Shown here piece by piece: positions 1,949-5,037 of a stretch of DNA of 5,037 nucleotides. The position numbers were made by a program, and so were the translations under genes. Source of the stretch: a virus (Duplodnaviria > Heunggongvirae > Uroviricota > Caudoviricetes); IMG/VR virus record IMGVR_UViG_2740892234_000006; one strand, given 5' to 3'. Position 1 is the stretch's first letter; each line of letters opens with the position of its first letter. Below the pieces are notes generated by a model. The model had not been told where the DNA came from. It did no database searches and saw only the letters and a program-made list of their open reading frames with translations.

Positions 1949-2051
1949 ATGGACAAAAAAGCCCGCGCTGGGAGACGCGGGCGGCAAGGAATAAACAATG
2001 AAACGTGAAGTAATATTTCAGCTGGCGAATAATACCCTATAGTAATCACTC

Positions 2052-2073: not shown

Positions 2074-2187
2074 CGAATTGCGGGCTGTAGTCTCCCTTCT
2101 GCCATTGTCCTGTAACTTCCGGACTTCAGCCCGCTCCTTATTTTACTCACAATATTATCCCGGCCGGGAGGATTCATGGCATTTAAA

Positions 2188-2820: not shown

Positions 2821-2952
2821 GTATCCGCGCCACGCCCGGCGCATATCAACCACAGAGCCTTTCGGGGGTGAGCTTACGGAGTGGTCAGTGTGACTTTCTC
2901 TGTGGGCAGATCGCTCCCGGGCGTTGGCTCACCCACCCAAAGGAACGTCACG

Positions 2953-3111
2953 ATGTTTGGTATTTTTGGTAAAAAAAGCCCGCAGAGCGGCAACGGAAAT
3001 TAAAAAGTTTGAAAAACGCGATCTGGCACAGGTGGTGATTAACGCCGCCTACCTGGTGGCCTATGCAGATGGTGAATGTGAGGCTTCCTAGAAAGCGAAG
3101 ATCGAACAGGT
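2953..3111 (+). pseudogene. Degenerate partial copy of the TerB-like gene (start codon present, then frameshift and in-frame TAG)
   Basis: ATG 2953 with RBS AAAGGAA gives MFGIFGKKSPQSGNGN* (stop 3001-3003). The following ~120 nt are ~90% identical to 3122-3243 but in a different frame, consistent with an extra A in the A7 run at 2971-2977, and carry TCC TAG (3086-3091) where the downstream copy has TCA GAG. Could also reflect low-quality contig-end sequence. Confidence 0.45.
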
Positions 3112-3121
3112 NNNNNNNNNN
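3112..3121. other. Run of 10 N between two partial copies of the TerB-like gene
   Basis: Directly visible. Confidence 0.95.
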
Positions 3122-3136: not shown

Positions 3137-3535
3137 GTGGAAATTAAAAAGTTTGAGAAACGTGATCTGGCACAGGCGGTTATTAATGCTGCCTATCTGG
3201 TGGCCTATGCAGATGGTGAATGTGAGGCTTCAGAGAAAGCGAAGATCGAGCAGATCTTGCGTAACCAGCCTGCGTTGTCCGCGTTTACGTCAGAAATTAA
3301 TGCGATTAGCGCAACCATTATCGGTCAGCTGGATACGAACTTTAAAATTGGTCGTCGAGCGGCATTGCGTGAAATTGAAGATGTGAAACACGATACGCGT
3401 GAAGCGGAAGATGTGCTGGATGTGGCGGTGGCCATTGCGGAGGCAGACGGCGAAATTGAGCCGGAAGAGCGCAAGGTGCTGGAAGAGATTGCCGGTGTTC
3501 TGGGTCTTCGTCTGGAGAATTACCTGTTACGGTAA
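3137..3535 (+). CDS. TerB-like (tellurite-resistance TerB family) acidic protein; 5' end uncertain because the frame is open back to the N run at 3121
   Basis: ORF ...EIKKFEKRDLAQAVINAAYLVAYADGECEASEKAKIEQIL...AVAIAEADGEIEPEERKVLEEIAGVLGL... contains two A-x-ADGE-x-E repeats typical of TerB-family domains, as recalled. The true N-terminus is probably MFGIFGKK..., as in the upstream degenerate copy. Confidence 0.6.
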   Translation: MEIKKFEKRDLAQAVINAAYLVAYADGECEASEKAKIEQILRNQPALSAFTSEINAISATIIGQLDTNFKIGRRAALREIEDVKHDTREAEDVLDVAVAIAEADGEIEPEERKVLEEIAGVLGLRLENYLLR

Positions 3536-3860
3536 AACTGCGCCTGACTGTGGCTGCACTCCTGCTGTTTCTGGTGGTGATGGTGGATTTCACCAGCAGA
3601 ATCATGTCGGTGCTGGCGGATGGGGTGCTGGTCTGCGGCATTATGGTATTGCTGTGGCCGGTGATAAAAAGAAACAGCCTGCATAATGCTTGATTTTTTT
3701 ATTTGCTGTTTATTAAAAATACTACTGCATGGTGAATCCCCCTGTGCGGTGGGGCAATCAGCAAGAAGGAATATGGGGTAATCGCGGATTCAGGTGCTGA
3801 TACTGAATTCACCGGGAGGCACCCGGCACCATGCAAGAAAAAGAATGTGCATGCAAACAT

Positions 3861-3886
3861 GCCCCTCTCCGGAGGGGCATTTTTTA
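3861..3886 (+). terminator. Intrinsic terminator-like hairpin inside leader copy 2
   Basis: GCCCCTC-TCCG-GAGGGGC then ATTTTTT. Followed by A6 and hairpin GCCCGAA-TGGG-TTCGGGC (3899-3916), which reads as a terminator on the - strand. Confidence 0.55.
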
Positions 3887-3978
3887 TGGGTAAAAAATGC
3901 CCGAATGGGTTCGGGCAATAGCATGAGATACTGATATTGTTGTGTTGTTATCGTGTGGATTTTAACCAGGGTTTATCA

Positions 3979-4004
3979 GGCTGCGCAACTGCGTGGCCTT
4001 TTTT
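3979..4004 (+). terminator. Intrinsic terminator inside leader copy 2
   Basis: GGCTGCGC-AACT-GCGTGGCC (8-bp stem with two G.U wobbles) then T6. Confidence 0.6.
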
Positions 4005-4100
4005 CATTTCTTGGGCTGTAGTCCCCGTGTGTCATTCAGGCTTCCGGACTACAGCCCACTCCATATCTGATTTAATACACTATCCCGGCCGGGAGGAATA

Positions 4101-4155
4101 ATGACATTTAAACATTATGATGTTGTCAGGGCGGCGTCGCCGTCAGACCTTGCGG
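4101..4155 (+). CDS. 5' fragment of a DUF1737-type gene (nanS-p paralogue), cut after 18 codons by the N run
   Basis: RBS GGGAGGA then ATG; MTFKHYDVVRAASPSDLA... matches the N-terminus of the downstream gene (MSIKHYDVIRAASPSDLAEK...). Confidence 0.5.
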
Positions 4156-4165
4156 NNNNNNNNNN
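4156..4165. other. Run of 10 N cutting a DUF1737-type gene after 18 codons
   Basis: Directly visible; the last 29 nt before the gap are identical to 4347-4375 in the downstream nanS-p gene. Confidence 0.95.
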
Positions 4166-4208
4166 ATTTCTGTTTTTCTCAAACTATCATCGTTATCCCT
4201 TTATTTTC

Positions 4209-4235
4209 GGCTGCGCATGGCGCGGCCTTTTTTTT
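4209..4235 (+). terminator. Intrinsic terminator
   Basis: GGCTGCGC-ATG-GCGCGGCC (8-bp stem, one wobble) then T8. Confidence 0.65.
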
Positions 4236-4321
4236 ACGACCAGCCACTGGCAGATGGTCATCCTGTGATTTGATTCCGCTTCCGGCTTTTTAACTCTGTT
4301 CCTCTACACGGGAGAAATTCG

Positions 4322-5037
4322 ATGTCGATTAAACATTACGATGTTATCAGGGCGGCGTCGCCGTCAGACCTTGCGGAAAAGCTGACACACAAACTGAAAG
4401 AGGGCTGGCAGCCATACGGCGGACCGGTTGCCATTACGCCGTACACACTGATGCAGGCGGTGGCTATTGAAGGAGAGCCACAGGTCGGCCCTTCATCTGA
4501 GCCGGATTGGTACTACGTCATCGTACTGGCCGGGCAGTCCAATGCCATGGCTTACGGTGAAGGGCTTCCGCTGCCGGATTCATACGATGCTCCGGATCCG
4601 CGCATTAAACAGCTGGCGCGCCGCAGTACAGTGACGCCGGGCGGGGCTGTCTGCAGATATAACGATATTATTCCGGCTGACCACTGTCTGCATGATGTGC
4701 AGGATATGAGTACGCTGAATCATCCGAGGGCTGACCTGAGCAAAGGGCAGTACGGCTGTGTCGGCCAGGGTTTACATATTGCCAAAAAACTGCTCCCGTA
4801 TATCCCGAATAACGCGGGGATCCTGCTGGTACCATGCTGTCGTGGTGGTTCGGCATTTACCCAGGGCGCGGAGGGGACATTCAGCGAGTCCACGGGGGCC
4901 AGTCAGGATTCGGCACGCTGGGGAGTGGGCAAGCCGTTATATCAGGATCTGATTTCCCGCACAAAAGCGGCATTGCAGAAAAATCCCAAAAACGTTCTGC
5001 TGGCCGTCTGCTGGATGCAGGGTGAGTTTGACATGAG
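4322..5037 (+). CDS. nanS-p: Prophage sialate O-acetylesterase, NanS-p-like (N-terminal DUF1737 domain plus SASA esterase domain); 3' end beyond the window
   Basis: ATG 4322 with RBS GGGAGA. Frame 2 stays open to the window end, which is why it is absent from the ORF track. N-terminus MSIKHYDVIRAASPSDLAEKLTHKLKEGWQPYGGPVAITPYTLMQAVAIEGE is DUF1737-like; the GQSN motif (4532-4543, ...VLAGQSNAMAYGEG...) is the catalytic-serine signature of SASA-family esterases. This gene class sits downstream of stx2 in Stx phages (recall). Confidence 0.8.
   Translation, partial: MSIKHYDVIRAASPSDLAEKLTHKLKEGWQPYGGPVAITPYTLMQAVAIEGEPQVGPSSEPDWYYVIVLAGQSNAMAYGEGLPLPDSYDAPDPRIKQLARRSTVTPGGAVCRYNDIIPADHCLHDVQDMSTLNHPRADLSKGQYGCVGQGLHIAKKLLPYIPNNAGILLVPCCRGGSAFTQGAEGTFSESTGASQDSARWGVGKPLYQDLISRTKAALQKNPKNVLLAVCWMQGEFDM

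Follow-up and report, generated by a model that had tools for sequence, protein, structure and literature searches.

Comparative evidence for a conserved RNA stem-loop in the leaders of prophage nanS-p genes

Late-gene region and anatomy of the nanS-p leaders

The window, i.e., the whole 5,037-nt stretch analyzed here, is a late-gene region of a lambdoid, Stx-type prophage on a draft scaffold. It carries, in this order, the antiterminator gene Q (recognized by a Pfam Phage_antitermQ match), a tRNA cluster, two STnc100 genes together with a minus-strand AgvB gene, a TerB-family gene, and three DUF1737-type starts. Four runs of exactly 10 N (1514-1523, 2188-2197, 3112-3121, and 4156-4165) sit at the edges of repeated sequence, namely tRNA-Arg, the nanS-p 5′ end, and the TerB-like gene, which indicates that prophage repeats have been collapsed in this scaffold and that adjacent pieces of the window may not be contiguous in the actual genome. 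A scaffold gap falls within the 88-nt "tRNA-Arg" at 1468-1555, which is an artefact. Two TerB-family reading frames on the + strand (2924-3091 and 3137-3535) are 90% identical over 132 nt; the first is broken by a stop and a scaffold gap, and the second is intact (132 aa; Pfam TerB, 1.7e-13). Two perfect 10-bp palindromes, TACGATCGTA (843-852) and TATCATGATA (863-872), lie 10 bp apart, in a stretch that overlaps the 3′ end of the Q gene and continues just past it, where PR' and the Q-utilisation site are expected.

In Stx phages, nanS-p directly follows stx1 and stx2; EHEC genomes can contain as many as 10 copies of this gene, which enables the strains to feed on O-acetylated mucin sialic acids. 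The genes that an earlier note on this DNA had termed DUF1737-type do encode a DUF1737-type N-terminus, but they are really the 5′ ends of full-length nanS-p (DUF1737+SASA+DUF6645). Two such paralogues, hereafter copy 1 and copy 2, start on the + strand at 2176-2178 (ATG; Shine-Dalgarno [SD] sequence GGGAGG at 2166-2171) and at 4101-4103 (ATG; SD GGGAGG at 4091-4096), and are truncated by the gaps at 2188-2197 and 4156-4165, respectively. Among complete homologues, matching leaders precede NanS-p esterases of 616 to 662 aa with the DUF1737+SASA+DUF6645 architecture, and a leader identical to that of copy 1 (L149) is followed by a 536-aa NanS-p-type ORF with a DUF1737-type N-terminus.

The intergenic blocks preceding both paralogues are rich in sRNA genes. 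Two full-length copies of STnc100 (RF02076) occupy positions 1749-1954 and 3701-3891 of the + strand (158 and 139 bits), and one hairpin-bearing leader follows each of them, an arrangement that fits the "convergent sRNA" module (Tree et al. 2014). The anti-GcvB sRNA AgvB (RF02702) gives a strong, full-length Rfam match on the minus strand at 3892-3953 (96.5 bits), with a putative promoter made up of a -10 box TAAAAT (3964-3959) and a -35 box TTGCGC (approximately 3988-3983). Where copy 2 has AgvB, copy 1 has a different candidate sRNA (1950-2030, minus strand) with a predicted folding energy of -19.7 kcal/mol (z -2.5), a strong terminator made of a stem at 1982-1961 and T6, and no match in Rfam.

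Both nanS-p leaders contain a 13-bp inverted repeat. The geometry described in the earlier note was reproduced by sequence inspection and a repeat finder: in copy 1, GCGGGCTGTAGTC at 2080-2092 is complementary to GACTTCAGCCCGC at 2122-2134 across a 29-nt spacer with one mismatch (T-T, 2088/2126), and in copy 2 the arms at 4012-4024 and 4046-4058 form a perfect 13-bp repeat with a 21-nt spacer. The compensatory outer pair was likewise found as described, the C-G of copy 1 (2081/2133) corresponding to U-A in copy 2 (4012/4058). As RNA, copy 1 gains one more pair, a G.U at 2093/2121, so that the repeat finder, folding, and covariation delimit a 14-nt 5′ arm including this closing pair (2080-2093, + strand) and a 3′ arm at 2121-2134. 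The pyrimidine-rich apical loop between them (2094-2120) is variable in length and sequence among variants. Folding supports both arms of copy 2 on the + strand as well. Markov simulations predict only 0.09 inverted repeats of this kind (13 bp, at most one mismatch, spacer of 3 to 40 nt) per window, which places the repeat beyond chance. The two leaders of the window are homologous (81% over 72 nt). From 5′ to 3′, their common anatomy comprises an intrinsic terminator, a U/A-rich linker of 6 to 9 nt, a G+C-rich lower stem of 8 bp, separated by a U.U mismatch or small internal loop from an upper stem of 5 to 6 bp, a variable, pyrimidine-rich loop of 13 to 29 nt, and, between the stem-loop and the SD and ATG, a variable spacer of approximately 24 nt with A/U- and C/A-rich stretches.

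Covariation, strand polarity, and distribution of the stem-loop

Leaders for comparison were gathered by anchoring only on the coding start or on the SD plus start, and the repeat itself was not a selection criterion. This approach collected 54 distinct leaders of the hairpin type. Among 33 distinct hairpin variants, double-sided, pairing-keeping changes were found in 10 of the 14 pairs and 88% of the cells were paired, all variants coming from related, recombining Escherichia/Shigella prophages, in which independent substitution events are fewer than sequences. Examples of compensatory change are G-C to A-U and G-C to U-A (both in L140), A-U to G-C together with UxU to C-G (L087), U-A to G-C (L300), and G-C to A-U (L332). 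The covariation score amounted to 0.240 versus 0.147 in column shuffles, with none of 500 shuffles reaching the observed value, and sliding the partner positions brought it to 0.09 or less. A 29-sequence alignment of full leaders gave an agreeing covariation picture, and RNAalifold predicted the helix independently, with no prior input of the pairing. Single changes in the stem were strongly biased to wobble-compatible ones, and the U.U mismatch position is unpaired in 27 of the 33 variants. The earlier note had named a lack of conserved pairing in wider alignments as an outcome that would speak against a functional repeat; pairing is instead kept across the 33 variants.

Thermodynamic predictions point in the same direction. 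The copy 1 stem-loop folds at -22.6 kcal/mol (z -4.3 against dinucleotide shuffles) and that of copy 2 at -28.0 kcal/mol (z -6.4), and the same hairpin fold is predicted in every variant, the stem persisting while the loop diverges in length and sequence. The pairing is strand specific. Cells with G.U or U.G pairs number 38 versus 3 with A.C or C.A, which is the polarity of the nanS-p mRNA, and in the most divergent variants the + strand folds far better than the other strand, as in L086 (-22.8 versus -5.8 kcal/mol), L126 (-23.2 versus -12.3 kcal/mol), and L098 (-30.4 versus -21.4 kcal/mol). In homologous leaders the arms are spaced by 13, 21, or 29 nt or by intermediate lengths. Collectively, the variable spacer, the G.U excess, and the better folding of the + strand indicate that the conserved object is a single-stranded, + sense nucleic acid. 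Mitomycin C induces nanS-p together with stx2a (PMC10462455), from which we infer that the leader is transcribed in the + sense and that the RNA is a late mRNA. A coding role was rejected: ORFs over the repeat are not conserved, and the differences in loop length are not multiples of three, which argues both against coding and against a fixed spacing of half-sites. As judged from these patterns of sequence variation, the inverted repeat is a + sense RNA stem-loop maintained by selection in the nanS-p leader.

Scanning 807 kb of prophage DNA with a covariance model built from the variants (R1) gave exactly one strong match at each locus, in every case approximately 40 nt upstream of the nanS-p ATG; the occurrence of the hairpin elsewhere in the prophages was thus rejected. 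The leader was found in 1185 of 5426 complete E. coli genomes ahead of SASA/DUF1737/DUF6645 esterase genes, with a median of 3 and a maximum of 10 copies; the E. coli copies number 3828. In 933W, VT2-Sakai, H-19B, Shigella phage 7888, and GER2, this leader separates nanS-p from the gene for the Stx B subunit. A simple pattern search for GCGGGCTG-N20-50-CAGCCCGC in viral contigs produced mostly chance matches in unrelated contigs and one further true copy (L289).

Two other types of nanS-p leader are devoid of the hairpin, which is therefore not essential for expression of the gene. As stated in the earlier note, the nanS-p start at 4322 lacks the arrangement; it has a different leader and gives no covariance-model match. 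The + strand segment at 4166-4236, ATTTCTGTTTTTCTC...GGCTGCGCATGGCGCGGCCTTTTTTTT, follows an STnc100-like 5′ domain as 3′ tail and terminator in hairpin-less leaders (L009, L011, and others), and probably represents a relative of STnc100 of the PasD type, with direct read-through into the nanS-p copy at 4322. A third leader type (L002, L003, L091, L092, and others) is A+T-rich, hairpin-less, and ends in AUGGUGGAAAGAACCAUG; in this sequence, base pairing of AUGGU with ACCAU could bridge the SD-like GGAAAG, and many of the ORFs that it precedes are only 57 to 72 aa long, corresponding to DUF1737 alone.

Possible roles of the stem-loop in the nanS-p message

The element lies immediately downstream of transcription termination signals. 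In copy 2, a strong intrinsic terminator (3978-4004, + strand; 9-bp stem, T6; -14.9 kcal/mol, z -4.7) precedes the stem-loop and overlaps the putative minus-strand AgvB promoter; its T-run is the A-tract upstream of the AgvB -35 box on the opposite strand, and a single sequence may thus serve as terminator on the + strand and as promoter or UP-like DNA on the minus strand. The homologous element of copy 1 (2052-2073, + strand), just upstream of the stem-loop, is a weak terminator-like hairpin with a T-run (5-pair stem, -7 kcal/mol). The 6-nt single-stranded linker between terminator and stem in copy 1 includes GAAUU (2075-2079, + strand), a motif match to the RNase E consensus RN|WUU, of which the pentamer GUAUU is cleaved in StxS (PMC7547250). 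GUAUU, GAAUU, or GUUUU occurs in the linker of 33 of 39 distinct leaders, although so short a motif is expected by chance at about 1 in 64 per position and more readily in U-rich sequence, and linkers of the copy-2 type lack it.

These features suggest, as the most likely role of the + sense stem-loop within the Q-dependent late transcript, that of a determinant of nanS-p mRNA stability or processing, a proposal for which we see about even chances. Q-modified polymerase would read through the intrinsic terminator directly before the hairpin, and endonucleolytic cleavage in the linker, at the RNase E-type motif, would then leave a nanS-p mRNA segment that begins a few nucleotides before a stable hairpin. 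Such a 5′-terminal stem-loop could shield the message from 5′-end-dependent decay, as ompA-type 5′-terminal hairpins do, and could insulate the RBS from the highly variable "moron" and sRNA sequences upstream.

The first alternative is translational gating, in which a UCCC/GGGA mini-hairpin over the SD, anti-SD-like CU-rich sequences, or both would damp or condition NanS-p translation; we regard it as rather unlikely. It builds on the perfect 10-bp palindrome CCCGGCCGGG, which is present at 2159-2168 and 4084-4093 and overlaps the SD in both copies, as the earlier note had observed. As RNA, the segment could form a weak 4-bp UCCC-GGCC-GGGA hairpin over the first half of the SD in copy 1 (2158-2169, + strand; approximately -5.4 kcal/mol) and its equivalent in copy 2 (4083-4094, + strand; -5.2 kcal/mol). 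However, the palindrome is unexceptional as such: the window contains 5 perfect 10-bp palindromes against 5.2 expected from Markov simulations, so that on its own it is not beyond chance and its recurrence reflects the homology of the leaders. Its center varies among variants (CCCGACCGGG, CCCGCCCGGG, CCCTGCCGGG, CCAGGCCGGG, CCCGCCAGGG, and CCCGGAAAGGGG), which argues against selection on the palindrome as DNA. The corresponding RNA hairpin has loops of 4 to 6 nt and energies of -5 to -7 kcal/mol among variants, and the segment folds no better than shuffled sequences (z +0.2 and +0.4).

Comparison of the leaders provides arguments on both sides of translational gating. The CCC is retained in 49 of the 54 distinct leaders amid variable flanks, while the 4 to 6 nt between CCC and GGG and the upstream spacer vary freely; in L301 a C-to-U change retains a U.G pair, in L201 the helix is extended to 8 bp (-10.9 kcal/mol), and both RNAalifold and minimum free energy folds draw the mini-hairpin. 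Anti-SD-like CUCCC, CCUCC, and CUCC also occur, either within the large loop or directly 3′ to the stem. Conversely, the third pair is broken in five distinct leaders (CCA, or G8 to A), the leader alignment contains no compensatory change in the palindrome, where the invariant SD side leaves none to arise, and the predicted share of SD paired to the nearby CCC differs between variants, from 0.01 to 0.83 (0.05 for the copy-1 type). Consistent occlusion of the SD was rejected on account of this wide variation in predicted accessibility. Moreover, the large covarying stem-loop ends 31 to 32 nt upstream of the SD and leaves the RBS outside. Of the RBS-sequestering RNA structure proposed earlier, the inverted repeat thus stands as a covarying stem-loop, but its placement speaks against sequestration. 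The palindrome, the one feature that reaches into the RBS, is an ordinary chance-level feature, not an operator, and at most a weak 4-bp hairpin that slightly damps access to the SD; such a hairpin, predicted from CCC...GGG pairing, is possible given the retention of CCC in most leaders, which is the sole indication of a function.

A second alternative is that the hairpin has no present function and is a decaying terminator or a remnant of a module boundary, conserved through recent shared ancestry and block recombination. Closely related Escherichia/Shigella prophages are the source of all examples, the hairpin is missing from other nanS-p leaders, and it lies at a mosaic junction beside the variable moron region. 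Against this, double pairing-keeping changes affect most of the pairs, single changes are wobble-biased, and the stem is kept while loop length and sequence diverge; the short loop and U-tract of a terminator are missing, and the terminator scan has no entry for it. We consider this explanation doubtful.

A comparably small probability attaches to a composite riboregulatory leader, in which terminator, hairpin, C/A-rich spacer, and SD mini-hairpin would act together and make NanS-p dependent on RNA processing or on a trans-acting RNA. In one candidate circuit, GcvB would pair with CACAACAUUAU immediately before the SD, and AgvB, the neighboring anti-GcvB sRNA, would relieve this pairing. The spacer of copy 1 (2148-2159) has CACAAUAUUAUC, and many related leaders (e.g., L103, L109, and L143) have CACAACAUUAUC. 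This motif resembles the GcvB-target mimic CACAACAAUAUC of the neighboring AgvB, and approximately 11 bp could form with the R1 region of GcvB. The predicted duplex energies of GcvB with the C/A-rich spacer correspond to z-scores of only -0.7 to -2.4, and leaders of the copy-2 type do not have the motif. GcvB targeting of the spacer is thus only a lead from duplex predictions. The hairpin as a binding site for a trans-acting factor is a further rival for its role.

Cleavage by RNase III at the hairpin, which would detach the nanS-p message from the moron and sRNA sequences upstream in the late transcript, appears improbable. The location between cistrons of a polycistronic late phage RNA, the conserved internal U.U mismatch, and a helix stability well above background all suit this enzyme. 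However, the helix has only 13 to 14 bp with a loop of 13 to 29 nt, whereas typical E. coli RNase III substrates offer a coaxial helix of approximately 20 bp (about two turns).

Finally, the arms as half-sites of a DNA operator for a dimeric regulator, the other reading offered in the earlier note, are very hard to sustain, whether the target be nanS-p or the divergent promoter of an AgvB/AsxR-type sRNA: the sequence is symmetric and the repeat is located upstream of the putative minus-strand AgvB promoter, at approximately 60 to 105 bp from it, but the arm spacing differs by 8 and 16 bp, arm sequences vary with only complementarity kept, G.U-type changes that pair on the + strand alone break the DNA symmetry (L086, L087, and L300), and a promoter scan detected no + strand sigma-70-like promoter in the leader. 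Variable spacing and strand-specific wobble pairs are together a clean discriminator between an RNA hairpin and a protein operator. The scan yielded only a weak minus-strand match over the ATG, and a + strand promoter within the leader was rejected accordingly. This sigma-70-like match (ATGCCA-17-GATAAT, 2182-2154) spans the nanS-p start codon and the palindrome, and by eye has a counterpart in copy 2 (ATGTCA-17-GATAGT); it is either a chance match or a potential source of antisense transcription through the hairpin.

Relation to known RNA elements

A conserved structured leader suggests that nanS-p expression is shaped post-transcriptionally, beyond Q antitermination alone. Should mRNA stability or a processing boundary be determined by the hairpin, the amount of esterase that accompanies toxin production would be affected, and the hairpin would represent a compact, portable leader element. 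If the GcvB/AgvB circuit were true, the mucin-sialic-acid esterase of more than 1000 pathogenic E. coli genomes would be tied to a prophage anti-sRNA circuit.

No Rfam family covers the leaders, for which the best lenient matches scored 10 to 16 bits against gathering thresholds of 37 to 90; a GcvB match at 4056-4234 (28 bits versus a threshold of 42) spans a scaffold gap. Convergent sRNAs between the moron and a "conserved hypothetical ORF", which is nanS-p, have been described (Tree et al. 2014, PMC4104026), and a preprint relates PasD to STnc100 and places the esterase gene between PasD2 and PasA (Zhu et al. 2026). Neither report describes the leader hairpin, and no description of it was found in the literature searched. 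Among entries EcOnc01-33 in Table S2 (Tree et al. 2014), no Hfq-bound sRNA is listed at the expected position of the hairpin, in a screen that left out sites within 100 bp of a CDS (PMC4104026).

The prophage sRNA module at the PR' moron site (STnc100/EcOnc27/PasD plus AgvB/AsxR/EcOnc03) shares the intergenic block from the moron (stx) to nanS-p with the hairpin, which nevertheless lies outside those sRNAs, beyond the + strand terminator and on the upstream side of the AgvB promoter. SD-sequestering hairpins and RNA thermometers resemble only the palindrome, whose UCCC pairs with the GGGA of the SD in predicted folds; unlike them, it has merely 4 bp worth approximately -5 kcal/mol, no covariation, a shuffle-level fold, and inconsistent occlusion. 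Intrinsic terminators, such as those at 3978-4004 and 2052-2073, are likewise G+C-rich inverted repeats in intergenic regions of the late operon, but they have loops of 3 to 8 nt rather than 13 to 29 nt, and the nanS-p stem-loop is followed by UCCUUAU.. or UCCAUAU.. instead of a U-tract; the terminator scan did not list it, though it listed the neighboring terminators. The intercistronic RNase III hairpins of T7 and lambda are similarly located between cistrons of phage late or polycistronic RNA, a likeness to which the conserved internal mismatch of the nanS-p hairpin adds, whereas its helix of 13 to 14 bp is shorter than is typical and its apical loop is large and variable. In the hairpin type of the ompA 5′ untranslated region, as in the nanS-p leader, a stable stem-loop lies a few nucleotides from the likely 5′ end and tens of nucleotides before the SD, with no part of the RBS inside it. 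The two differ in that sequence similarity is absent and that the nanS-p element is internal to a long polycistronic phage transcript, for which processing must be assumed. The nanS-p hairpin is thus apparently an undescribed representative of a familiar type, the conserved cis-acting leader stem-loop, with a function that is probably ordinary but placed in a medical context.
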